Positions 3,631 to 26,291 of a stretch of 64,000 nt of DNA are shown here, piece after piece. Under the pieces are notes generated by a model that saw nothing but the letters and a program-made list of their open reading frames with translations, had not been told where the DNA came from and made no database searches. Location of the stretch: NCBI GenBank assembly GCA_951813015.1, contig CATOTG010000011.1, positions 129,889-193,888 on the forward strand, given 5' to 3'. Position 1 is the stretch's first letter, and each line of letters opens with the position of its first letter. The position numbers and the translations under genes are program-made. This DNA is from an uncultured Thermoanaerobaculia bacterium (GTDB lineage Bacteria; Acidobacteriota; Thermoanaerobaculia; Multivoradales; Multivoraceae).

Positions 3631-6600
3631 CCGGCCGGCAGGACGATCCGTACGGACAGTCCCCCACCCGGCCTCCTGGAGGCTGCAATCGTGCCGCCGT
3701 GTTCCTCCACGATGCGCCGCGCGATCGGGAGGCCCAAACCCGTGCCGCCACTCGAAGTCGAAAAGTAGGGCTCGAAAATGCGTTCCAGGTCGGGATCCGG
3801 GACGCCCGGCCCCCTGTCGTCGACGGTCACGGCCAGGGCGCCGTCGTCGCCGACCGGCGCCACGGCGACACGGACCTCGCCGCCCCCCTCGCTCGCGCCG
3901 AGGGCGTTCTCCAGCAGGTTGCGGACGGCTCGCTGCACCAGGCGCCGGTCGAAGGCTGTCGGCGCCGCCCCCTCGTCCGATTCCGACTGGAACACGACGT
4001 CGACACCGTCCGGGGGCGGACGCCGGTAGCCGTCGACGACTTCCAGGACCGCGGCCGCCAGGTTCCCCGGCGCCGGCTGGGCCAGCGGAATCCTGCTGTA
4101 GGTCGAAAACTCACTCGCCGTGCGGGCCAGTTCGTCGACCTGCACGAGGATGTTGTCCGTGCAGCGCTCGAAGACTTCCTCCAGCCGCTCCGGGGCATCC
4201 CGCCACACCTGCCGCAGATGCTCGGTCGAGAGGCGAATCGGGGTCAGAGGGTTCTTCACTTCGTGGGCGATCAGCCGCGCCATCTCGGCCCAGGCCTCGA
4301 GTCGTTGCGCCTCCTCTTCCCGGGCCCGGTTCGAAGCGATGCGGGCCGCCATGCCGTCAATCGCGGCGCCCAGCGTCTTGAGTTCCGTCTCCTGCGGCTC
4401 GAAGCCGAGCGAGGATGCGCCGCCGGCAATTCGGCCTGCGCCATCGATCATTTGCATCAGCGGCCTGGTGAAGCCCCGGGCGAGACGGGCGCCGACGGTG
4501 ACGAGCAACAGGACCAGGGCCATCGTGATGACCAAGGCCTGCCGCCTCAGGGCGGCGAGTTCCCGGGTGGCCGCTTCCTGCTGCGCCAGCAGCGGTACCG
4601 ACACGAAGAGTCCCGATTCCCCCGGGCGCTCTTCTCCCAGGGAGACGGGCGTGTACAACTCCAGGTAGGAGGCGCCCCGACCGGCGGTCTGGACGCGGGC
4701 GGCTGTCGGGTGCCCCAACAGGGCCAGTCTGCTGTAGACGTTGCCGGGAATGCGCTTGGGCATCAGCCCGGCGGTAAAGAGGTCCGGCTTGCTCGACGCG
4801 TAGACGCTGCCTCGCCAGTACAGGTTCACTTCGTGCCCCACGACCTCGGCGAGCCAGGCCAGGAGTTCGTCGTCCAGTTGGGCGTCCATCGAGAACCCCG
4901 ACTCCAGGCCGAGGAGAAAGTCCGTCAGGACGTACTCGAGCGACACCAGGGCAGTGCGACCGGCCACTTCCTGCTCCGCCTGGATCCGGGCCCCCAGGTT
5001 GCGGAAGAGCAACACGTTGAGCAGCGTCAGCGGCACGATCGCAATCAGGGCCAGCACGGCCGTGAGCCGAACCGAGTAGCGACGGACGTCGGGCAGAAGG
5101 GTCTCCCGCAACGTCGCCGCCGGCAGGCTGATCACGAGAACCGCGAGGGCCGCCGCGGAACCAGCCAGCACGAGCCGCGCAGCGACCGTGGCGATCCGCC
5201 ACAGGCTCTCCGCCACGGACTGCTCGGGCAGCAGCGCGACAACCCATAGCCCTTCGAGGCCGGTGGGCCTGAACCAGGCCAGGGCGGGTCCCGCCGGTGT
5301 CTCCACCCGGCGGGTCCGACTCGGATCCACGGCTTCGGAGGGCGCCGGCAACAGCCAGTCCTCCTGCCACCGCGATACGAGCGGTCGGCCTGCACCGTCG
5401 ACCCAGGCGAGGAGCGCCTGCGCCGGCGGACTGGCGCCGCTCCGGCCCGGGCCACCCCGGAGCAGACGCAACTCGAGTTCGGCGCCAGCTCCCGAGCCGA
5501 CGCCGCCCCAGACGTCGAGGCGCGGGAACGCTTCCGTCCAGAAGCGAACCGAGCCCCAGCCCTGTCCCGCGGAAGTAACCGTGACCTCATCCGACGCGCT
5601 GCGCCGCTGCTGCCAGACTGGCAGCTCGCTTCGCGGCCAACGGGCGCTGTCGACCGCCAGGTCCCCGGTCGCGGTCTCGACCGGCAGGCCGTACGAGAAG
5701 GTCGACGAAACCCCGTCCTCCCGAATCACGACGAGGGCCGAGAACAGCTCGGAAACGGCGAGAGGCGACCGGCGCCAGAGCTCCAGCGCCAGGTCCTGGT
5801 GATCGTCGAGTTCGTTCGGGTCGCCGAGAGCCAGTTCCCTCAGGTCGCTCGATGCGAGGAAGGAACGCGTCGCCTCGGCCAGCGATGCGACGTCCTCGGG
5901 CGCGGGAGCGTCGAGACCGCCTCGAGCGCTCTCCAGGAGCAGCGCACGGACCGCGGGCCGATGAGTGATCTCGGCAAGCAGGCCCACGCCCAGGGCCGCC
6001 GCGGTGGCGATCAGCAGAAGATGCATCCAGTCCCGGCCATCCCGCCAACCGGTGACCCACAGCGCGGTTCCGGCGAGCAGGACCCAGGCCGCCAGCAGGA
6101 CCGCCCAGTGACCGATCGGCCCTCCGAACGAACCTCCGGGATCGACCGGCGCCCCCGCCGCGTCCGCAGCCCCGATCTGCCAGCGATAGAGGCCGTAGCC
6201 CACTGCCGACGCGACTCCCGCCAGGCCGACGGCCGCCGCGGCGCGCCCGGGCCGCTTCCGGGTACCACCGCTCCAACGGCGAAAGACCCAGGCCAGCGAC
6301 AGACCAGCCCCCAGGCTGACGGCCGCCAGCGCGAGCCAGCCCGCTAGTCCTCGTTGCCGCTGCGACGCCGGTTCGAATCGGAGCCTCAGCCACGGCGCCG
6401 GAACGCCCTCCGGGGGAGCGAGTTCCCGAATCCCGATTGCCTCCAGGGCCGGCGCCATGGGCTCCGCCGAGTAGTCCCGAACGGACCACCGGACACCGTA
6501 ACGCCGCAGTCCGAACGGCGTCGGGATCGGCAACGCGTCGGTCGGAAAGCTGTTGCCGACGACCAGTCTCCATCCGCCCTCGCCCGTGCTCATGTCGACG

Positions 6601-11369: not shown

Positions 11370-11600
11370 GGCTCCACGGTCCCCTGGGACGAGAGAGGCG
11401 CCCGGGGCGAGAGATGCGCGATCCGCGCACGGGCGCCGTAGATGTCGAAGCGCGAATCTCGCCGGGGAGGCCGAGGACGCGTTCGGGGCGCGTTCCGCGC
11501 ACGGGCGCCGTACATGTCGAAGCCCTTCACGGCTCCGCCGTCCTCTGGGACGGGAGAGGCTCCCGGGACGGGAGAGGCTCCCGGGACGAGAGGGCGATCC
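11363..11600. repeat. complex ~160-bp segmental direct repeat spanning the recG 3' end and the glycosyltransferase 5' end
   Basis: X unit ([43 protein letters not shown]) occurs at 11365 and 11525. Y unit (ccgcgcacgggcgccgtaSatgtcgaag) occurs at 11425 and 11495. Confidence 0.8.
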
Positions 11601-13698
11601 CGGGAATCCGGCGCTCCAAACGGCGCCGCAGCGCCTCGTTCTCCGGCGCCGCGAGCCGGTCCAGAAGCACCGAGGCGTCGGTACGAGCCGCCACGAGCCA
11701 CTTCCAGTCCCGGGCCGGGTCGCCGAAGCGGAACTGCGGCAGACCGGCCTGGCGCGTGCCGAGCACCTCGCCCGGCCCCCGCTGCCGCAGGTCCTCCTCG
11801 GCGATGCGGAAGCCGTCGTTCGATTCCTCGAAAACGGCCAGCCGTCGCTCGGCCTCGGCCGAAGACCCGCCCGAGACCGCGATGCAGATGGACTCCCCGA
11901 GGGCTCGATTTGTTCCGCGGCCGATGCGCCCCCGAAGTTGATGAAGCTGGGCCAGCCCGAAGCGCTCGGCGCCGAGGATCACCATCGCGGTCGCCTCGGG
12001 TACATCGACGCCGACCTCGATCACGGTCGTCGCCAGCAGCACCTCGATCGAACCGTCTAGGAAGCGACTCATCGTCCCGTCGCGCTCGTCGCGCCCCACA
12101 CGACCGTGGACGACGCCGCACGGCGCTCCAAGCGCATCGGCCCACCAGGAAGCCGACTCCTCGAGCGACGGCAACGCGGCTGCGCTCCCCTCCCCGGCGT
12201 CGATCAGGGGAAACACGACGTATGCCCGGCCACCGCGACGAAGCCGCTCGCGCACGAGCTCCACAGCCTGATCCCGCTGGTCCGCGCTGATCACCCGGGT
12301 CTCGACCGGACTGCGGCCAGGCGGCATCTCGTCCAGAATCGACACGTCGAGGTCACCGTACACGGTCAGCGCCAACGACCTGGGAATCGGCGTCGCGGTC
12401 ATCACCAGGAGGTCCGGTCGCTGCCCCTTCTCCGCCAGGGACTGCCGCTGGGCGACACCGAAGCGATGCTGCTCGTCGATCACGGCCAGTCCCAGGCGCG
12501 CAAAGCGGGTTCGTTCCTGGATCAACGCGTGCGTGCCGACCGTCAGGTCGACCCGGCCGGCGGCGATGCGCTCCCTCACCGCCGCGCCCCCGTCACTGGC
12601 GACGTGCTGGCTGGAGGTCACCAGGGCCAGGGTGAGATGCGACTCCAGCAGCCGCGCCAGGGAAGTGAAGTGCTGTTCCGCGAGCAGCTCCGTCGGCGCC
12701 ATCAGGGCCGACTGCAGGCCGCTTTGCGCCGCGACCAGGCAGGCCAGGGCGGCAATCACCGTCTTGCCGCTGCCGACATCCCCCTGCACCAGGCGCAGCA
12801 TCGGCCGCGGGCCGGACAGGTCCCCGACGATCTCCTGGAGCACGCGTTCCTGGGCACCGGTCAACTGGAACGGCAGCAGACCCCGCGCCTCGCGCCACGC
12901 CGAATCGCAGATCCGGTAGCCGTGCGGCTTCCCCTGCCGCCGGCGGCGCCTGCGAACGGCGGCAAGCTGCAACTGCTGGAGCAGGAACTCCCCGTAAGCG
13001 AGGCGCGCGTGGGCCGGACTCCGCCGCTCGTTCAGTTCGCCAACCGATGCCTCCGGTGAAGGTCGATGGACCTCGGTCAGGGCTTCCGCCAGGCTCGGCA
13101 GGCCGTGCCGGGCCCGTTCTTCCTCGGGCAACCACTCGTCGATCCACTCGGCTCCGCGGGACGCCGCCAGATCCCGCACGACCCCGCCCGCCAGCCGCTC
13201 CACCCGCGACGGCGGCACGTCTCCGATGCGCCCGTAGACCGGCCGTACGCCGCCCCTGGGCGTTTCCTCGCCCACCCGCTCGACGGTCGGGTTCGCCAGT
13301 TCCCAGGCGCCGTCGCCGCCCCGGCGCCGGGGCACGCCGTGGAGCAGGTAGGAGGCGCCCTCCTCCAGTTGATTCAGCAGATAGGGCCGGTTGAACCAGA
13401 CCACGCCGGCCCGGTTCTCGCCGTCGTCCGCGATCGCCTGCACGCGCGAGAACCGGCCGCGGCCGAACACCCGCCGCGGCTTCTCAAGGCGCACGACGAC
13501 GGTCAACGCGCCAGGCGCGGTTTCGGGCGACGCCTCCTCCTCCGGCCCCGGCAACCGCCCGAGCGTGCGCCGGTCCTCGTAGCGGATCGGCAGGTGGGCC
13601 AGGAGGTCCCTTATCCGCCGGCAACCCGCGTCCGCCAGTTTGCCGCCCAGCACGGGGCCAACACCGCGCGCACTGGTGATCGGGTCGCCCGCTTCCAT
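11527..13698 (-). CDS. recG: ATP-dependent DNA helicase RecG
   Basis: Wedge/OB N-terminus. SF2 motifs: GDVGSGKT, DEQHRFG, QLHQLRGRIGR. C-terminal tail SREPLPSREPLPS is encoded by the repeat. Confidence 0.9.
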   Translation of the reverse strand: MEAGDPITSARGVGPVLGGKLADAGCRRIRDLLAHLPIRYEDRRTLGRLPGPEEEASPETAPGALTVVVRLEKPRRVFGRGRFSRVQAIADDGENRAGVVWFNRPYLLNQLEEGASYLLHGVPRRRGGDGAWELANPTVERVGEETPRGGVRPVYGRIGDVPPSRVERLAGGVVRDLAASRGAEWIDEWLPEEERARHGLPSLAEALTEVHRPSPEASVGELNERRSPAHARLAYGEFLLQQLQLAAVRRRRRRQGKPHGYRICDSAWREARGLLPFQLTGAQERVLQEIVGDLSGPRPMLRLVQGDVGSGKTVIAALACLVAAQSGLQSALMAPTELLAEQHFTSLARLLESHLTLALVTSSQHVASDGGAAVRERIAAGRVDLTVGTHALIQERTRFARLGLAVIDEQHRFGVAQRQSLAEKGQRPDLLVMTATPIPRSLALTVYGDLDVSILDEMPPGRSPVETRVISADQRDQAVELVRERLRRGGRAYVVFPLIDAGEGSAAALPSLEESASWWADALGAPCGVVHGRVGRDERDGTMSRFLDGSIEVLLATTVIEVGVDVPEATAMVILGAERFGLAQLHQLRGRIGRGTNRALGESICIAVSGGSSAEAERRLAVFEESNDGFRIAEEDLRQRGPGEVLGTRQAGLPQFRFGDPARDWKWLVAARTDASVLLDRLAAPENEALRRRLERRIPGIALSSREPLPSREPLPSQRTAEP

Positions 13699-13744: not shown

Positions 13745-14626
13745 TCAGCCGATCACTTCGAGCATCCCCGACTTCGGGTCGAGCCGGACCGGCGCTCCCA
13801 GGGGCAACGTGTGATTGGGCGCCTGGTGGCCCGCCGGCAACCCGACCAGAAGCGGCACATCCAGCGCCTCGGCAAAGTCGATCAAGCTGTCGCGCGCGTC
13901 GCAGTTGGTGAAGTGGCCGGCGACCACGGCCCGCACACCCGCGATGTGACGGGAAGTCCGGAGCTGGGTCAACAGGCGGTCGATCCGGTACTCGGGCTCG
14001 TCGATGTCCTCCAGCAAGAGGACGCAGTCCCGAAGATCGGGAAGGAAACCCGTTCCGGTCGTCGCTGCCAGCATCGTCAGACAGCCACCGAGCAGACGCC
14101 CCTCGATCACCTCCGGTCGGCCGGCCGACACCCCGACGACCGGCGCCAACTGCCAGGCCGGGCCCGGTTTCCCGGCCAGCGCCTCAAGAAAGGACGTCCG
14201 CTCCTCCGAACGCAGCCCGCGGGCGAAGTCAACCACCATCGGGCCGTGGTAGGCCACCGTACCGGCGCGAGACACGAGGCCCAGGAGCAAGGGCGTCAGG
14301 TCGGAGTAGCCCACGCAGGGCCGCGGACGGGAGGCAAGCAACGACCAGTCGATCCCCCCCAGCAGCCTGGTCACGCCGTATCCGCCCCGGGCGAAGACGA
14401 TGGCCGCGACCCTGTGGTCCGCAGCCAGTTCGTGGAACGCAGCCAGGCGCTGACGGTCCGAGCCCGCGAACAGCGACCTTCCTTCGCGAATCGCCCCGGA
14501 CCGCAGGTTGGACGCGAGCACCACCTCGAAGCCGAGGTCTTCGAGCGCCTGCACCCCGCCGGAAAGGCGCTCCGGGTCGATCGGTCCGGAGAGCGCCGCA
14601 ATGCCGATCCGGTCGCCGGGCCGCAC
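13745..14626 (-). CDS. ldcA: LD-carboxypeptidase (peptidase S66 family)
   Basis: S66 motifs: AIVFARGGYG, CVGYSDLTPLL, and VGLPAGH with H near the C-terminus. The track ORF starts at TTG 14677, which would touch the RNase P RNA 3' end. The GTG at 14626 (VRPGDRIGIAALSG) is preferred; the start is uncertain. Confidence 0.75.
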   Translation of the reverse strand: MRPGDRIGIAALSGPIDPERLSGGVQALEDLGFEVVLASNLRSGAIREGRSLFAGSDRQRLAAFHELAADHRVAAIVFARGGYGVTRLLGGIDWSLLASRPRPCVGYSDLTPLLLGLVSRAGTVAYHGPMVVDFARGLRSEERTSFLEALAGKPGPAWQLAPVVGVSAGRPEVIEGRLLGGCLTMLAATTGTGFLPDLRDCVLLLEDIDEPEYRIDRLLTQLRTSRHIAGVRAVVAGHFTNCDARDSLIDFAEALDVPLLVGLPAGHQAPNHTLPLGAPVRLDPKSGMLEVIG

Positions 14627-14677
14627 GGCAGGCGGACGCGCCGCGCCACGCCGCGTTCCTTTGCTACGAAGGGTCAA

Positions 14678-15097
14678 GTGCCGGAGGACCTCGTAAGCCG
14701 GATTCTGTTCGTCCCGTCACCGTCAGGCGAAAGGAGGCGGCCATTCATCTTTGCGACCTACCCGGAGAGCGTCCCGGACTGCGAACAACCCGGCATCGGG
14801 ACGGACAGCCCGAACCGCACTCCCTATTTGGTCTTGCTCCACATGGGGTTTGCCATCGCCTCGCACCGTCGCCGGCCGAGCGGTGCGCTCTTACCGCACC
14901 GTTTCACCCTTGCCGGCGCTGCGGCCCTGAAGCCCTGGGTGGGCGCCGGAACCACTGCGCCGGCGGTCTGCTCTCTGTTGCACTTTCCGTCGCGTCACCA
15001 CGCCTTGCCGTTAGCAAGCATGCCGTCCGTTGGAGTCCGGACTTTCCTCCCCCGGCGGGCAAGCCGCCGGGAGCGACCGCATCCGGTCCTCCGGCAG
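14678..15097 (-). ncRNA. rnpB: RNase P RNA (bacterial type A)
   Basis: Universally conserved segments on the reverse complement: GGAGGAAAGTCCGGAC (P4), AGTGCAACAGAGAGCAGACCGCC, AAGGGTGAAACGGTGCGGTAAGAGCGCACCG, GGAGCAAGACCAAATAGGGAG, ACAGAATCCGGCTTAC (P4 3' strand). A 12-bp P1 helix joins CCGGAGGACC with GGTCCTCCGG. Confidence 0.85.
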
Positions 15098-15324: not shown

Positions 15325-18062
15325 TCACCGGTCAGCGGAAGGAAGTTCGACGACGGCCAACATCTCGTCGCCGAAGGTGGTCACGATCCGCACGGCAATC
15401 CGGCCGCGCTCCGGGCGGCGGAACGGCGCCGAGGTGAGGGACTCCATGAACTCCCACTGTTTCGGGTCCACCCGCGCACCGAGCCGCTGCTTGAACGCCT
15501 TGATCTGCCTGTCGTTCGACTTGCCCGGGAAGTGAATCCGGCGGGCGAAGAAGGAGCGCCCGTCGTAGTCCGTGTCCAGCATCCAGCAGTCGATGTCGCT
15601 TGTCTTGCCCGCAGGCCGGACATTGCCTGTGCCCGGATCGTAGACCTGGTAGCCGCGCACCCGGACCTGCCAGGCGCCGTCCTCTCTTCGAATCGGCTCG
15701 AGATCCGGCTCGCCAACCAGGACGAAGGCCGTGTCCTCCCGTCCGGACTTCAGTGCCCGGATCGTCAGGTCACGGTTTGCGCGAACCAGCACGATCTGCA
15801 GCCTGCCCCGCTCCTCGTTCGTCGCCTGGGCATCGAAGTGGAAGGCAACGATCAGCAGTTTGGCAAAGCCGCGGCGCGCCGCCACAAGGGCTGCATCGTC
15901 GATCAGCTGCCGGGTGGCGGTACGGTCATCGGGGACCGTGGCGATCGCCACGCGCTCGCCCGCTGGTTCAGGAGCTCCTCTTGACAGCCCGGCAAACTCT
16001 CCGCCGCGTTCGTCTGCACCGCCGCCGCGTGCGACTTGCCTGGCGGCTTTCCCTTCCCGCCTCCCCGGCGCTGCGGGCGGCCCGTCAGGGGTCGACCCGG
16101 GCTCCTCCGCCACGACGACTCGCAGCGTTGCCTCGTGGGTCAGGAAGACGGGAGGGGCCGCGTCCTCCGAAAGTTCGATGCCGTCGAAACGCCACCGCGC
16201 GCCCGCTGCGCCCTTAGGCCAATCGGGCGCTGCGATGCCGGCAACCTCCAGGGCGTGGACGACGTTCTCCCGTATCGCTGTCTCCCGCTCATCGTGTCGA
16301 GCCTCACGCTCCGGACGCTCGTCACCGCCCTCTGCTTCTCCGCTGGGCGACACGTACAGCCACGGCGAATGGGACTCGACGGTGAACGGCGAGGCGATCC
16401 GCTTGACGCCTCGTTTCGCCACCGGCTTGTTGACGAGCAGTGTCGCTCTTCGCGGTCGGTCGTAGGCGAGATGGGCGGCCGACACGTAGGGCACGCGCTC
16501 GTAGACGAACCCCGACGAAGGATCGCCCCCCCCCCCCCCCCCCCTGAGTCTCTCTCGCTCACATAATCGTCGAGCCGGTCCGCAAGCTTCGCCTCTTCCT
16601 TCCCACCCTCCGCGTCGTCCCGGGTCAGGAACCACTGGTGAACCGAGGAAAGGACGCGTTGCCGGCACAGGGCGACCGGAACGGCCGAAGCATCGATCGT
16701 GATCCACCGTCGCCCCCAGCGCTCGGCGACCGCGGCGGTGGTGCCGGAGCCGCAGGTCGGGTCGAGGACCAGATCGCCCGGGTCGGTCGCCATCAGCAGG
16801 CAGCGCTCGATCGTCTTCTCCGCCGTCTCGACGACATAGTGCATGTCGCTCGCGGATTGCTGTTGGCGCCAGAGGTTGTTGATCTGCTTTCCCGGCACTT
16901 CGTCCTCGTAGCGTTTCCACGCCAGCGTTCCCTTTGCCACCAGCCGGTTCGTCCGGGCAAGGTGGTCCATCCCCGCGGCATCGACCCGCCATTGCTCGCC
17001 GGGCGGGCACGAGAACACCGTCCCCTCCCATGCGTAGGGATCCGACCGGCCGGTCGTGGACACCTTGGCGGAAGCCAGGCGCATCCGCCGGAAGAGCCTG
17101 GCGCCTTCCGGCAGTTCGCCGTCGGGATCGAGCCGCTCGGCGGGCTGGAGGTCACGGCAGGCGCCGTCCGCCAGCTCGACCATCGCGTGCCACGACATGT
17201 GCTCCAGCTTCTCTTTCCGGTTCAGGGGGTCGTAGAGCTGGTGGTACGTCACCCGGCCCTTGTCCTTCGCGTACCAGAGCAGCCAGTCGGCGACCTGGGG
17301 CAGGTTCCTGGCCGATGTCGCCCCCGACTTCGCAAACGCGATCGTCGCCACGCGGTTCTCCGCGCCGAACACCTCGTCGAGCACGACGGACAGGCGATGC
17401 ACGTTCTCGGTGCCAATCTGCAGGAAGAACGAACCCCGGTCCCGGAGCAGCGCCCGGGCGTGAACGGCGGTGCGGAAGACGGTGTCCATGTACGAGTGCA
17501 GGCCGTCGACATAGGTATCCCGGAACGCCCGGCGCGAAGCCGCCTCGACGGGCGGGCTGTTCTCGGTCCGCTTCCGCGTGCTGCCCTGGTAGTTGCTGTT
17601 GAACCCGATGCCGTAGGGCGGGTCGAAGTAGATGAGTTGGACCTGGCCCGCCATGCCCTCCTTCTCCGCCAGTGACGCCATCACCTCGACCGAATTGCCG
17701 CGGATGATCCGGTTCTGCCAGTTCCCCTCGTACCGGTACCAGTCGTAGCGGGCCTCCTGCGGCAGGCCATTGAAGTCGGCGAAGAAGCTGCGCTGCTCGT
17801 CTTCGGCGCCATCCCTGGAGATCTGCTCGACGAAGGCGGCGGGGCTGACCTTCTCGTGGATGTACAGGGGCATCGCGTCCGTTTCGATGCGCTGCGCATC
17901 CGTTCCCCGCCGCCAGCTGAGGCGCGGTCCCTCCGTGCCGGCCGGCTGGGGCGAGAACGGGACCCGCTCACGCACCTCGTCGACGTAGACCTCGTCCCGG
18001 TCCGTCGGAATGTTCCTTCGCTTGGCGCCGCTGTGCTCGTAAGGCCGTGTCTTCGGAGCCAT
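15325..18062 (-). pseudogene. mod: Type III R-M modification methyltransferase (beta-class N6-adenine MTase) mod, frameshifted at a G19 tract in this sequence; candidate phase-variable gene
   Basis: N-terminal segment (18062..~16545, ORF 16140..18062): motif IV DPPY (IYFDPPYGIGF), then motif I LVLDPTCGSGTTAAVA. Immediately 3' of the poly-G tract (16526-16544) the sense reading continues in another frame (ORF 15325..17031) for ~400 codons. That segment has a conserved-looking C-terminal region (CWMLDTDYDGRSFFARRIHFPG...GRIAVRIVTTFGDEMLAVVEL). The two ORFs differ by frame +1/-2. Confidence 0.75.
16526..16544 (-). repeat. homopolymeric tract C19 (plus strand) = G19 in the mod coding strand; putative slipped-strand phase-variation switch
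   Basis: Block counting gives 19 consecutive C. The ORF-track translations DSGGGGGGAIL (frame A) and LRGGGGGGDPSS (frame B) are both consistent with 19 G. Confidence 0.85.
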
Positions 18063-18065
18063 CTA

Positions 18066-18079
18066 CCCCCCCCCTTTTT
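18066..18079 (-). repeat. G9 + A5 homopolymer pair between the SD (GGAG) and the mod ATG
   Basis: Minus strand reads GGAG-AAAAA-GGGGGGGGG-TAG-ATG. The tract lengths set the SD-start spacing. Confidence 0.7.
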
Positions 18080-18251
18080 CTCCGCCGGTCCCTTGAGTCT
18101 TCGCAGCCCGTTCAACCCCGGCAGACCCGGAAGCCCCGGTACGCCCGGACCATCCCCGCTTCGCTGCGTTCCAGGGTGCGTTCCGCGACGCCGTCCTCGG
18201 CGCGACCGGCGCCGTGGGCCAGCGGTTCGCGAACTCCTGTTCGCAGCCCGT

Positions 18252-21197
18252 TCAACCTCGGCACGCCCGGGCGATCTGCTCGCGCGCGTCCCCGATGTTC
18301 TCGATCCACACGGCGCGCCAGGCGCCGTGGTCGTCCACCCCTCCCGGGCCGCCCGCGGGTCGCCGGGAAACGGCCGGGACCCAGCGCTGCTCCAGGTAGC
18401 GGCGCTTCTGCTCCTCGCTCACCTCACCGGCCCGCAGACCCTTGAACTCGATGACCAGGCAACGGCTGCGCCCGCCGGGCGCCTGCGCCTTCGCGCGGGC
18501 CACGAAGTCCGGTTCCGTGCGTGCCCAGCAGGCGTTCCCGCTGTCGTACCAGGGCACCGTCCAGCCCAGGCGGAAGTTACGCACCCAGGCTTCGACATCG
18601 GGGTGGCGGTCGAGAATCTCCGCAAGTCTGGCCTCGTCGCTCGAGTGGCAGGCGGCGGCGTTCAGTTCCGACTTCGCCGTGTCGTCGTACCAGTACCGCA
18701 GCGTGGTGCGAAAACGGACACTGCCGGTGTCGCTGGTCCGCCCGGCGCCCGGCGCGCGCTGATCCTCGAACACGGCGCCAACACAGGGTTCCCCATCGAG
18801 ACAACGCACGCGGGAGGCGATCGCGTGCAGCGTGTCCTCGTCGAACTGCAGGTCGGTCCAGTCCTCGCAGTCGAGGTTCGGCCGGCAGACGTCGAGGATC
18901 GCGAGAGCATCGAGGAAGGCCTGGCGCCGGTCATCCACGCCGCGCTCCAGCTTCGGCACCAGCTGAGCGGCGGCCTTCCACAGCGCCGTTCGTTCGTCCT
19001 CGGACTGCTGCCGGACGAGGATGGACTCTCCCAGCGGCCCCTCGACCGAGGTGCCGACCAGCGGCCCCCTCGGCGTCACGCGGCGACGCGGCGCGTCACG
19101 CGGCTCGATGCTCCAGCGCGGGGCGCCGCCGCCGTGAGCGTAGCCGGCCAGGTGCGGGAAGCGGAGTCGAAGGTGCTCGCGCCCCGGCAGCGTATGGACG
19201 TCCTGAGGCTCCACCGGAACCGGCGGCGTCCCCGGCGTCCTGCCTCCCGGCCAGGCAAAGGGGACGCCGAACAGATTCGCGTACTCGATGGGCTGCTTCT
19301 CGTCCCGGCCGCTGAACGCCGTCTTGCGCAGCGCGCGGCCGGTGACCTGCTCGCACAGCAGCTGGCTGCCGAAGGCGCGATAGCCGAATATGTGCGTCAC
19401 GTTTCGGGCGTCCCAGCCCTCGGTCAGCATGCCCACCGAGATGACGCAGCGAATGTGCTCTCCGGGTTCGCCCCGGCGACCGACGGACATGAAGACATCG
19501 CGGATCGCCTGCTGCTTCTCGGCCCGCGTGAGGGGCGCGTCAGCTTCGGCAGAGGGGGCGAACAACGCGGCCTGGTCCTCGATCGCCCTGCTGATCGCGT
19601 CGTTGCCGCCGGACGCCGGGTCGTCAAGGCGCGAGTGGACCAGGATGGTGGGTGGCCGTTCGACCGGTTGGCCGGTTGAGCGGTCGGCGTTCGAGAACAG
19701 CTCCAGGTTCCCCGCCTTCCAGACCTCGGCTTCGTCGTCATCCCCGCCGAGCGCCTCGCGGTAGCCGGCGATGTAGCGGTGAAGCGCCGTCGCGTTCCCG
19801 ATCGTGTTGGCGACCACGATCAGAACCGGAATCCGGCCCCTCGCCTCGTAGGCCGGCACGGTCTCTTCGGCATGGTGCTTGTAGAGTTCGTGCAGCGGTT
19901 CCGCGACCGCCGGCGCCAGCGGCTCGCCCAGCGCGCGCCTGTCGTTGTGCAGATACACGTTGCGATAGCGTGGCGCGAGGTGGATCGGCTGGCCGTCGGC
20001 GCCCAACGCCCGGTCGTCGACCGGCACGCGCGGCACCTTGACCAGGCCCGACTCCACGGCATCGAGCAGCGAGAAGTCGGAAACCGTCCACGGAAAGGTC
20101 TCCGCTTCGACCATCGCCGGTCGCCGCAGCCACATCGGCGTGGCCGACAGGTCGAAGACCTGGCCCAGCCGCCGGTGCGCGCGGAGCGCCCGCAGCGCGC
20201 CAAACCAGAGCTCGGCCCGTTTCCTGTCCTCCTTCTCCTCCGCGTCGGCTGCTCCCTTTGCCAGCCTGACGTCCCTCAGCGTGTAGCAGTGATGGGCCTC
20301 GTCGTTCAAAACGGCGATTGGCCCGCCGCCACGGTGGGCCTTGAGCAGGCGGTCGAGCATCTGCCGCTCGCTCTCGATCCATGAGTGGAGGTCCCTGCGG
20401 CCTCGCATCGGACCGTAGAGCAGGTCCTTCTCCTTCCCCGTCGCCGCCTTTCCACCGACGTGCAGGCTGGACTTCCGCTGGAAGGCCTGGAAGTTGAGGA
20501 TCGTCCAGCGCATGCGCTTCACGTCGCCCTGAAACCCGGGTGGCGCCACGGACCGCCAGAGCTCGTCCTTCGGGTTCCGCAGCACCTGCAACCGATCACG
20601 GATCACAAGACCGGGCGCGAGCGCCAGCAGGTCGATCGGACCGTCCGGCTGGCGCACGGCCCACCACAGGGCGATCATCGCCATCAGGTGCGTTTTCCCG
20701 GTGCCGGTCGCCATCTTCGCGGCCACGCGGGGAATGCAGTCGTTCCAGCGGCCGTTGGCCTGCTCAAGCCGCGCAGCGATCCTCGCGCGGGCGTCGGGAG
20801 CGTGTGCCCGACCCGCGTCGAACAGCCAGATCAGCGTCTCGACCGCCTCGCGCTGGCACCAGAACGGACGCATCTCGGCGCGCTCGCCGGCCCAGTCCTC
20901 GAGCAGGCGCCGCACGCGGGGGGCAACACCCTTCCAGCTGGCCGCCCGCCAGTCGTCAACCAGCTCGCGAAGCTCGTTGATCGTCCGGTGCGGCTCGACG
21001 CTCGGGTCAGGCGGCGTCCAGTCCGACTCGTCGCCACGAGGATTGGGCACCGGCAGCTGGGTTGAACTGGGCCGCCGCCCGCTCGCCGTGGCGGCCTTCG
21101 CGCGTCCGTGCCCGTCCAGCTCCCAGTGCCTGTCCGGCGCCGCGTAGGGCGTGTGAAGCACCCAATCCGGCCCAACGCCCTGCTCGCTGTCGCTCAC
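18252..21197 (-). CDS. res: Type III restriction enzyme Res subunit (SF2 helicase + C-terminal PD-(D/E)xK nuclease)
   Basis: Motif I MATGTGKTHLMAMIALW. Motif II VLNDEAHHC. Motif III LSATP. Motif VI VISVGMLTEGWDARNVTHIFGYRAF. C-terminal nuclease motif RCLVIEFKG. Apparent GTG start at 21197. Confidence 0.85.
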   Translation of the reverse strand: MSDSEQGVGPDWVLHTPYAAPDRHWELDGHGRAKAATASGRRPSSTQLPVPNPRGDESDWTPPDPSVEPHRTINELRELVDDWRAASWKGVAPRVRRLLEDWAGERAEMRPFWCQREAVETLIWLFDAGRAHAPDARARIAARLEQANGRWNDCIPRVAAKMATGTGKTHLMAMIALWWAVRQPDGPIDLLALAPGLVIRDRLQVLRNPKDELWRSVAPPGFQGDVKRMRWTILNFQAFQRKSSLHVGGKAATGKEKDLLYGPMRGRRDLHSWIESERQMLDRLLKAHRGGGPIAVLNDEAHHCYTLRDVRLAKGAADAEEKEDRKRAELWFGALRALRAHRRLGQVFDLSATPMWLRRPAMVEAETFPWTVSDFSLLDAVESGLVKVPRVPVDDRALGADGQPIHLAPRYRNVYLHNDRRALGEPLAPAVAEPLHELYKHHAEETVPAYEARGRIPVLIVVANTIGNATALHRYIAGYREALGGDDDEAEVWKAGNLELFSNADRSTGQPVERPPTILVHSRLDDPASGGNDAISRAIEDQAALFAPSAEADAPLTRAEKQQAIRDVFMSVGRRGEPGEHIRCVISVGMLTEGWDARNVTHIFGYRAFGSQLLCEQVTGRALRKTAFSGRDEKQPIEYANLFGVPFAWPGGRTPGTPPVPVEPQDVHTLPGREHLRLRFPHLAGYAHGGGAPRWSIEPRDAPRRRVTPRGPLVGTSVEGPLGESILVRQQSEDERTALWKAAAQLVPKLERGVDDRRQAFLDALAILDVCRPNLDCEDWTDLQFDEDTLHAIASRVRCLDGEPCVGAVFEDQRAPGAGRTSDTGSVRFRTTLRYWYDDTAKSELNAAACHSSDEARLAEILDRHPDVEAWVRNFRLGWTVPWYDSGNACWARTEPDFVARAKAQAPGGRSRCLVIEFKGLRAGEVSEEQKRRYLEQRWVPAVSRRPAGGPGGVDDHGAWRAVWIENIGDAREQIARACRG

Positions 21198-22389: not shown

Positions 22390-24194
22390 CTACGAGGCGC
22401 CGTCCCGGCCACGGACCGAAGAGTAGACCGAACGGCCGAGCTTCGCGCCGAGAACCTCCCGGAGTTCCTCCTCCGACGCCCGGGTCACGCCGGTGTAGCT
22501 GCCGAACCGGCGCACGAGCAGCTTGCGCCGCTGCGGGCCGATGCCCCGCAGGTCGTCGAAGCGGCTTTGGAGGGTTCGCCGGGAGCGCCGACGGCGGTGG
22601 CGCGACACGGCGAACCGGTGCGCCTCGTCACGCACCTGCTGGAGGACGCGCAGGCCGGCATGGTTCCGCTTCAGCCGCAGCGGCGCGGGTCGCACCGGAA
22701 TGTAGATCTCCTCCTCCCGCTTGGCCAGTCCCACGACCGGCGTCTCGTCGACGCCCAGTTCGGCCAGTGCCTCGAGGGCCGCGTTCAACTGGCCGCGCCC
22801 GCCGTCGATCAGGATCAGGTCCGGCATCTCGCCGACTTCCTTCAGGCGGCGTCGGTAGCGGCGCTCCACCGCCTGCCGGATCGAGGCGAAGTCGTCCGCC
22901 TGCGCCAGGCCGCGGATGTTGAAGCTGCGGTACTCCTTCTTGACCATCCGGCCGTCGCTCCAGACCACCAGGGAGGCGACCGTCTCGCTGCCGCCGAAGG
23001 TCGAGATGTCGAAGCCCTCGATCCGCCGCGGCGGCTCTTCGAGGTCGAGTGCCGTCCGCAACGCCTCGCTGGCCTCGCCGGCGGCGGCGGCGCCGCGGAA
23101 CCGCCGGCGAAAGGCCATCCGGGCGTTGCGGTTCGCCAGCGCCACCCGCTCCGCCTTCGGTCCGCGCGATGGCATCCGGAGGTAGACCTTCGACTCGCGG
23201 CGTTCGCTCAGCCACTCCACCAGAGCCTGCTCACCCTCGATCGGCGCCGGCAGGTGGATCTCCCTGGGAATGAGCGTGGTCCGATCGTAGAGTTGCGGCA
23301 GCAGCTCCGACAGCAGGCGCTCGGCGGTGATCTTCGAAACGCCCTCCCAGAACAACTCGCGGCGATCGAGCACCTGGCCGCCGCGCATGACCAGGACGAC
23401 GACCGCCGCGTTGTCGCCGCGAACGTGGACGCCGAAGATGTCGACGTCCTCGCCCCGGTCCGAACTCAGCTTCCGTCGCTGGCTGATCGATGCGATCTCC
23501 TGCATCGTGTCGCGAAGACGGGCCGCCGTCTCGAACTCCAGGCGGGTCGCCTCTGTCCGCATCCGGCCGCGCAGGTCCCGCAGCAACTCGTCGTTCCTGC
23601 CTGCGAGAAACAGGCGCGCCTTCTCGACCGCCTCGGCATAGGCCTCGTCGGTCGTCAGGCCGTCGACGCAGGGCCCCAGGCAGCGCTTCATGTCGTGGTA
23701 GAGGCAGGGTCGCGGCAGGCTGCCGTCTATCTCGATCCGGCACACCCGGATGCCGAACAGCTTCTGCGTCAGCTTGATCGCCTTCCGCGCCAGACCGGCG
23801 GGAAGGTACGGGCCGTAGTACTCCGCGCCGTCGCGGCGAATGCGCCGGGTGAAGGCAAGGCGCGGATGCCCGTCGGCGAGGGTGAGCTTGAGATAGGGAT
23901 ACGTCTTGTCGTCTCGCAGCCGGATGTTGAACCGCGGCTGCCGGCGCTTGATCCAGTTGTTCTCGAGCAGCAGCGCCTCGGCCTCCGAGTCGGTGACGAC
24001 GAACTCGATATCGGCCGCGTCCTGGAGCATCAGGGCGATGCGTGGATCCTCCGCCCGCACTCGGTAGGACGCCGCACGCCGCCTGAGGGACTTCGCCTTG
24101 CCGACGTACAGCGCCTCGCCGACCTCCCCCTTGAAGATGTAGATCCCCGGCTGATCCGGAAGCTCTCCCAGCCGCTGCCGCAGCTCCCGGCGCA

Positions 24195-24195
<1 letters not shown>
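22390..24195 (-). CDS. uvrC: excinuclease ABC subunit C
   Basis: GIY-YIG N-terminus (PGIYIFKGEVGEALYVGKAKSLRRR...ENNWIKRRQPRFN). UvrBC-binding and endoV/HhH C-terminus. The ATG overlaps the uvrB stop. Confidence 0.9.

Positions 24196-26291
<2,096 letters not shown>

Follow-up and report, generated by a model that had tools for sequence, protein, structure and literature searches.

The window analysed here, a stretch of 64 kb (64,000 nucleotides, 69% GC) from an uncultured Thermoanaerobaculia bacterium, carries on its minus strand a restriction-modification cassette of two genes. The methyltransferase gene, mod (15325..18062, minus strand), encodes a Type III-like beta-class N6/N4 methyltransferase that matches PF01555 (N6_N4_Mtase, E 2e-28, residues 141-459), the PADLOC model MTase_III (PDLC03632, E 3e-136) and EcoP15I Mod (4zcf_A, E 3e-11). 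In the translation, DPPYG is found near residue 147 and DPTCGSGTT near residue 434, i.e., DPPY (motif IV) stands N-terminal to the SAM-binding motif, the beta-class order of Type III Mod proteins. Full-length homologues have 846-915 aa, and the similarity to them starts at the ATG (18060..18062), where the N-terminus MAPKTRPYEHS lines up with MRTKTRPYEHS and MPSKPKPYEHG. Upstream of mod lies res (18252..21197, minus strand), which encodes a putative SF2 helicase-nuclease of 981 aa. It was matched over its full length by NF046055, the BPTD_3080 family of restriction endonucleases (E 9e-180; 600 bits, below the 800-bit cutoff), and weakly by PF04851 (ResIII, 20.3 bits, under the cutoff of 22.5 bits) and PADLOC REase_III, while no PDB match to res was found. 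Inspection of its translation by eye identified GTGKT (Walker A), DEAH and a C-terminal PD...EFK. The two genes follow each other as res then mod on the same strand in the window and in all relatives examined, which is not the mod-then-res order of Type III systems.

The cassette is surrounded by chromosomal housekeeping genes. Immediately downstream of mod is the RNase P RNA (bacterial class A, 230 bits; 14678-15093, minus strand), followed by an LD-carboxypeptidase gene (13745-14677) and recG (11527-13698), and on the other side is uvrC (22390-25776). In one relative, L001, the cassette is also located between uvrC and the same peptidase gene.

Between res and mod lies a spacer of 189 nt (18063..18251, minus strand), in which the ribosome-binding site of mod is located. 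For the most part this spacer consists of a decayed duplication (~140 nt) of the res 3' end, stop codon included, marked by a 31-nt direct repeat (18100-18130 and 18240-18270, 90% identity, spacing 140). The spacer has no excess structure (fold z-score of -0.04) and no match in Rfam at E <= 1; across the whole window, Rfam returned the RNase P RNA and one tRNA, and nothing else. No sigma-70-like promoter (-35/-10 pair) was found in 17900-18500 on either strand, and no terminator consensus in the spacer.

Read directly from the letters of the window, the end of the spacer on the minus strand is GGAG, A5, GGGGGGGGG, TAG and then ATGgctccg, the whole being preceded by ggc. The G9 homopolymer (18066..18074) abuts an A5 run (18075..18079), the distal GGAG (18080..18083) forms the 5' end of a polypurine box, and a TAG stop (18063..18065) is adjacent to, and in frame with, the start codon, which was taken from the list of open reading frames. 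This anatomy, with its coordinates, was exactly as given in the sequence-only reading that preceded this analysis, and so were the distances of 17 nt from the GGAG and 3 nt from the G-run to the ATG. The in-frame TAG directly before the ATG means that the mod reading frame has no upstream start, and an N-terminal extension through the tract was therefore ruled out. An upstream reading frame ending at the TAG, with stop-start coupling to mod, was also considered; no stop interrupts this frame as far back as that of res, but it has no ATG, GTG or TTG, and its 62 stop-free codons are not significant at 69% GC (P about 0.3, an estimate).

The choice of null model decides how unusual such a run is. 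With both tracts masked, Markov models of order 2-5 were trained on the window and evaluated analytically; they lead to an expectation of 0.12-0.17 runs of at least nine G or C per 64 kb and of 6-8e-5 (about 1e-4) for a given 30-nt target. A shuffle that preserves dinucleotides is less strict and yields 2.5 overlapping G9 matches on average, a value inflated by the G19 tract described below. By these estimates, the G9 run by itself is only moderately unusual. The two longest homopolymers of the 64 kb, however, are G19 and then G9, both in or at mod, and the occurrence of G9 at the start of the same gene that holds G19 is not chance. The abutting A5 (T5 on the plus strand) is the sole T5/A5 in the window. 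Runs of G7 are present elsewhere, for example at 14354-14360 and 26246-26252.

The G19 tract (16526..16544, minus strand; C19 on the plus strand) lies inside mod and acts as a reading-frame switch that is currently OFF. It splits the gene into a 640-aa open reading frame (16140-18062) and a downstream frame (15325-17031). The ON state requires a tract length n = 2 mod 3, such that G20 or G17 would restore a protein of 912 or 911 aa. Relatives of the cassette provided a view of both tracts in other genomes. A genome scan retrieved L004 (OX638294.1), from a MAG labelled uncultured Thermoanaerobaculia whose Mod is 96% identical to that of the window in its N-terminal half, together with more distant MAGs labelled Thermoanaerobaculia, Vicinamibacteraceae, Ca. 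Multivorans and others. All four members of the window's 90% protein cluster were examined, and contigs of this cluster from one sample (ERZ18545498) supplied two further haplotypes, L012 and L013; an exact-pattern scan of metagenome contigs found no further haplotypes. The record names of some relatives hint at coral or sponge hosts.

Over a core of 4.6 kb, the four haplotypes share 96.4-98.1% identity. Their upstream and internal tracts are A5 G9 and G19 in the window, A5 G10 and G31 in L004 (L004:5519-5549), A6 G9 and G21 in L012 (L012:4083-4103), and A6 G9 and G19 in L013 (L013:5519-5537). All four are out of frame at the internal tract. Farther away, L006 has G14 (5522-5535) and a full-length mod of 878 aa, i.e., it is ON, while mod is truncated in L007 (G10, 5519-5528) and L005 (C15, 5516-5530). 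The locus thus resembles a phasevarion in having a frame-setting repeat in the mod reading frame and natural ON and OFF alleles.

The downstream part of mod is constrained in spite of the OFF state. Values of dN/dS were 0.14-0.41 before the internal tract and 0.16-0.48 after it, read in the ON frame and using, for the part after the tract, the first 510 nt of the comparison with L013 (which falls out of register when taken over 1200 nt) plus the window-versus-L012 pair. With 0.14-0.48 on both sides of the tract, the whole of mod is under purifying selection, and its ribosome-binding site therefore serves a live gene. Possibly OFF is a common transient state, or else slippage, transcriptional or translational, partly rescues the long G-runs. 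It is most likely the internal tract that turns Mod, and by way of Mod also restriction, ON and OFF.

The linker position of the internal tract is occupied by a homopolymer in MAGs labelled as different orders or phyla (L006 with G14, L007 with G10 and L010 with G17 at 5760-5776). In L005 the run at this position is poly-C (C15), where other relatives have poly-G, and in the more distant relatives L016-L018 this place is taken by an ordinary linker rich in Gly, Ser and Pro. The homology of L004 to the window ends inside mod, at L004:6072, and the last ~220 mod codons are replaced by unrelated DNA (L004:6072-6420) with a C18 run (6349-6366), which leaves a mod copy that is truncated as well as frameshifted. 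In L017, a C12 run (L017:541-552) is located inside res, which was called as two open reading frames of 566 and 300 aa; judged from these letters, res may be the phase-variable gene in that lineage (~62% Mod identity). The flanks of the cassette also vary, those of L004 and L013 differing from those of the window and L012, and L013:1-42 belongs to a ZorA-like gene (Zorya defence) just upstream of the cassette, where the window has a different sequence.

Compared with the internal tract, whose lengths are 19, 19, 21 and 31, the upstream tract barely moves (A5 or A6, G9 or G10). Each pair of haplotypes differs by 86-165 SNPs in the 4.6-kb alignment, and internal indels occur only at the two tracts. 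At the upstream one a single indel is needed (14 nt in the window versus 15 nt), and it may lie in the A-run or in the G-run, the difference between A5G10 and A6G9 being one transition rather than an indel. Invariance across strains, which the sequence-only reading had named as part of what would refute it, is nevertheless not what was found, the four alleles being A5G9, A5G10, A6G9 and A6G9. With G9, and G10 in L004, the run exceeds the length of about 7-8 or more from which poly-G/C is regarded as hypermutable. Its tight G9-G10 range could come from stabilising selection on length or from a much lower slippage rate of a 9-mer. A dnaX-like slippery site (A AAA AAG) occurs only in the A6 alleles, with no reading frame translated across it, and was dropped.

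What the tract is becomes clearer from the same position in more distant relatives, a comparison with orthologous mod loci that had been proposed beforehand. In L016, L017 and L018 (Mod ~60-65% identical to that of the window), res and mod overlap at ATGA, an arrangement of translational coupling, and there is no tract. In L001, L002, L005, L006, L007 and L014 (Mod ~75-86%), mod starts 19-55 nt after the res stop and is preceded by a polypurine Shine-Dalgarno (SD) box of 10-17 nt. In the window, L004, L012 and L013 (Mod ~97-100%), the junction has 189 nt and A5-6 G9-10. Given this 189-nt spacer, as compared with 19-55 nt or an ATGA overlap, the window clade has uncoupled the translation of mod from that of res. 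The polypurine boxes of the six intermediate relatives read GGAGAGGAGAGGctcagaATG (L014), GGAGAGGGGGGAGAGGctcagaATG (L001), GGAGAACAGGGGAGAGGaatcggATG (L006), GAAGAGGGGGAGACtcggaATG (L007), GAAGAGGGGAGACtcggaATG (L002) and GGGGAGAGGGcggaATG (L005), as against GGAGAAAAAGGGGGGGGGtagATG in the window clade, and the SD boxes that orthologues have at the position of the tract include GGAGAGGAGAGG, GGAGAGGGGGGAGAGG, GGAGAACAGGGGAGAGG and GAAGAGGGGGAGAC. The G-run inside the box is 2, 4, 4, 4, 5 and 6 nt long in these six outgroups versus 9-10 in the window clade, and the differences within the box are almost all A/G transitions. The distal GGAG is conserved in the orthologues with a separate SD box: the box begins with GGAGA in all three of L001, L014 and L006, as it does in the window clade, and the first GGAG lies at a similar distance from the ATG (21-22 nt in the window clade, 18-23 nt in the outgroups). 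From the shared position, the GGAGA and the GGAG-ATG distance, it follows that the tract is the positional homologue of the SD box. It had earlier been placed between the SD sequence and the start codon, which does not agree with its occupying the position of the SD box itself.

Around the anti-SD, the 3' end of 16S rRNA is taken to consist entirely of pyrimidines (CCUCCUUUCU), and G can pair with C as well as with U. Other genes in the window have GAGGAG or GGAGG 6-9 nt before their starts, from which it follows that the organism uses SD pairing. With the tail taken as generic (CACCUCCUUUCU / ACCUCCUUA), which may not be the host's, duplexes between poly-G and anti-SD were calculated at -11 to -15 kcal/mol for G6-G16, which is comparable to the -12 to -16.6 kcal/mol obtained for the relatives' SD sequences. 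For G9, the CCUCC(UUUCU) tail is predicted to pair through G-C and G.U with its core 3-7 nt from the AUG; at the A/G junction, AAAGGGGG would give an 8-bp match to CCUCCUUU with one G.U pair and a 7-nt gap; and the best-scoring site in the model is AAAGGGGGG, at an aligned spacing of 6. With several registers thus predicted within 3-7 nt of the AUG, at duplex energies of -11 to -15 kcal/mol, the dilemma posed earlier, i.e., a GGAG too far from the start codon and a G-run too close to it, disappears.

These observations suggest the following mechanism. A5G9 would be the ribosome-binding site of mod, derived in the window clade from an SD box that was turned into two abutting homopolymers, A5-6 and G9-10. 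The G-run itself would pair with the pyrimidine-only 3' tail of 16S rRNA, and the pairing register could slide along the run, giving a productive SD-AUG distance at any length from about G7. Because of the sliding register, slippage by one unit would change initiation only a little. The length of the tract would probably not be under selection. The slippage-prone tract itself probably arose, like the internal G19-31, from one and the same local tendency of G-runs to grow.

The size of the length effect was estimated using a simplified RBS-calculator-style model, which combines suboptimal duplexes, a spacing penalty and the mRNA unfolding energy, has an error of ~2 kcal/mol and leaves out G-quadruplexes, standby sites and trans-acting RNA. 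The predicted relative initiation was 0.04 for G3-5, 0.25 for G6, 0.54 for G7, 0.89 for G8, 1.6 for G9, 3.1 for A6G9, 3.6 for G10 and 4.3-4.9 for G11-13. The response is therefore predicted to be graded, changing by ~2-fold with each G near G9, levelling off from G10 and showing a real loss only at G6 or below. The claim that tract length tunes initiation is not supported by this, the predicted difference between the observed alleles at G9-G10 being small (~2-fold) and within the model error. An espR-like refolding of the leader with tract length was rejected, as the predicted accessibility of tract and AUG is essentially the same from G8 to G11; whatever the length, the tract is predicted to be ~70% unpaired and the AUG ~50-58% unpaired.

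A difference next to the start codon was also noted. At mod codons 2-3 (18054-18059), the window alone has GCTCCG (Ala-Pro), and the other three haplotypes have GCTGCG (Ala-Ala). The CUCC of the window is predicted to be able to pair with the 3' end of the G-run, enclosing the AUG in a 5-nt loop, and the effect of this codon-3 SNP in the RBS model (~7-fold) exceeds that of tract length.

An 18-nt poly-G ribosome-binding site works poorly in E. coli, both in vitro and in vivo, according to the legend of Fig. S5 in PMC3310771. Going by that legend, poly-G may be a worse SD sequence than the energies suggest, in which case length would matter more. Likewise, the near-constant G9, G9, G9 and G10 at a dS of 0.06-0.13 could reflect stabilising selection, and length would then matter.

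The view of the sequence-only reading, in which selection maintains the upstream tract as a second contingency tract in its own right that tunes or switches mod initiation independently of the frame switch, is considered unlikely, if well short of negligible. In its favour, a run of G9-10 falls within the range of lengths that counts as phase-variable in known systems, just two sites in 4.6 kb vary by indels and the tract is one of them, and its placement at the start of a G19-bearing gene is far from chance. The model predicts a graded change of ~90-fold between G5 and G10, leader G-tracts have precedents in tlpB (PMC8295292) and espR (PMC11898584), and the narrow range of lengths might in itself mean selection on length. 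At the lengths that are in fact observed, however, a one-unit change has an effect of ~2-fold, which is within the model error and smaller than that of the nearby SNP. The four haplotypes differ by a single indel, maybe in the A-run, A5G10 versus A6G9 being a substitution, and the upstream tract is limited to one ~97% clade whereas the internal tract recurs in much deeper relatives. Moreover, with the internal tract OFF in four of four haplotypes, tuning of initiation has little to act on. A combined form of control, in which a hypermutable poly-G SD grades translation while the internal G19-31 sets the frame, the anti-SD tail reading the length of the tract, is a tentative proposal that we regard as rather improbable.

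It is also conceivable that the apparent length difference is a homopolymer error of long-read or other assemblies, and that the tract is fixed, an ordinary if odd ribosome-binding site. All the sequences, those of the four haplotypes included, come from metagenome assemblies, and for this reason the single 1-nt upstream indel could be an assembly error; several of the assemblies have long-read-style contig names, such data typically err by indels in homopolymers, and the true length difference is only 14 versus 15 nt, in one sequence, that of the window. Yet A5G10 versus A6G9 is a base substitution, so that the variation is real at least in part, G9 was obtained in three independent cases, and the 4.6-kb alignment has no other homopolymer-type indels, all of which makes an artefact distinctly unlikely. 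Two further explanations would give the run another partner. As a docking site for a trans-acting C/U-rich RNA, in the style of RepG and tlpB, or for another regulator, its length would set the strength or sign of control, as with the 6-16G leader repeat of H. pylori, to which RepG binds with its C/U-rich loop and whose length gives gradual control (PMC8295292). The run is predicted to be largely single-stranded here (P(unpaired) about 0.7), but the spacer has no Rfam match, the only ones in the window being the RNase P RNA and one tRNA, and for a tract that abuts the AUG the obvious C/U-rich partner is the ribosome itself; such docking is very improbable. In the tpr genes of Treponema and in Neisseria, transcription is modulated by poly-G tracts close to its start sites, and a mod-specific promoter that arose from the 140-nt duplication could similarly be affected at the DNA level, through the length of its spacer or discriminator (porA, opc or tpr style). 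A separate promoter is conceivable since the 189-nt spacer uncouples mod from res. This explanation has hardly any probability left in view of the lack of a sigma-70-like -35/-10 pair on either strand of 17900-18500, of a tract that ends 3 nt before the AUG, with no room for a -10 element and a leader, and of an orthologous position that is an SD box inside a res-mod operon.

The reading preferred here, and held with moderate confidence, is that the tract is the mod ribosome-binding site turned homopolymer, slippage-prone but nearly constant in length, and at most a weak rheostat rather than a second switch. Of the earlier interpretation there remains a tract in the initiation region of a mod gene that has an internal frame-switch tract; the independence of a second switch does not. 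The strong selection for reversible control that had been suggested finds no support here as far as the upstream tract is concerned. As the evidence stands, the result mainly refines the picture of one phase-variable restriction-modification locus, with the internal G19-31 as the switch and a drifted ribosome-binding site upstream, and it cautions that a homopolymer near a start codon should not automatically be counted as a second switch. If the tract does tune the synthesis of Mod, then the Shine-Dalgarno element itself would be the mutable repeat, and an ON/OFF phasevarion would gain a graded layer, in a lineage that is environmental, uncultivated and high in GC. Two-level control, if true, would make this a "rheostat plus switch" phasevarion outside the classical pathogens.

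The closest comparison is with the phasevarion mod genes of Haemophilus, Neisseria, Helicobacter and Moraxella, which share with this locus a Type III-like mod and a frame-setting repeat inside its reading frame. The present locus differs in the extra tract in the ribosome-binding site, which is absent from the classical phasevarion design, in the order res then mod, and in an extra C-terminal region of Mod, ~400 aa, after the tract. It comes from uncultivated Thermoanaerobaculia-type MAGs of 69% GC, whereas the classical hosts are host-adapted pathogens. An SD element that is itself the homopolymer, in the mod gene of an uncultivated high-GC lineage, may be new, and a limited literature search found no paper describing this arrangement in mod.

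Tracts in leaders have been described in other genes. [quoted passage not shown] The likeness lies in the length-variable homopolymeric G-repeat in an mRNA leader and in a C/U-rich RNA partner, the latter being the putative one here; in tlpB, however, the partner is an sRNA and the repeat is well upstream of the ribosome-binding site, whereas the run in mod abuts the AUG and its proposed partner is the 16S rRNA tail. In M. tuberculosis, another high-GC organism, one additional G in a poly-G tract of the espR 5'UTR raises translation, and indels recur there in natural isolates (PMC11898584). That tract is located 144 bp upstream and refolds the leader, in contrast to the one in mod, which is at the SD position and for which the predicted folding is insensitive to length. 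In H. pylori sabA, finally, slippage tracts are present in the promoter as well as in the coding region (PMC2715451, PMC4081817), a precedent for two tracts on one gene, which the earlier view had called unusual for a restriction-modification gene. As in mod, one gene there combines a regulatory tract, a graded rheostat in sabA, with a frame switch in the reading frame, but in sabA a promoter-proximal T-tract acts on the transcription of an adhesin gene, whereas here a putative ribosome-binding-site tract precedes a restriction-modification methylase.
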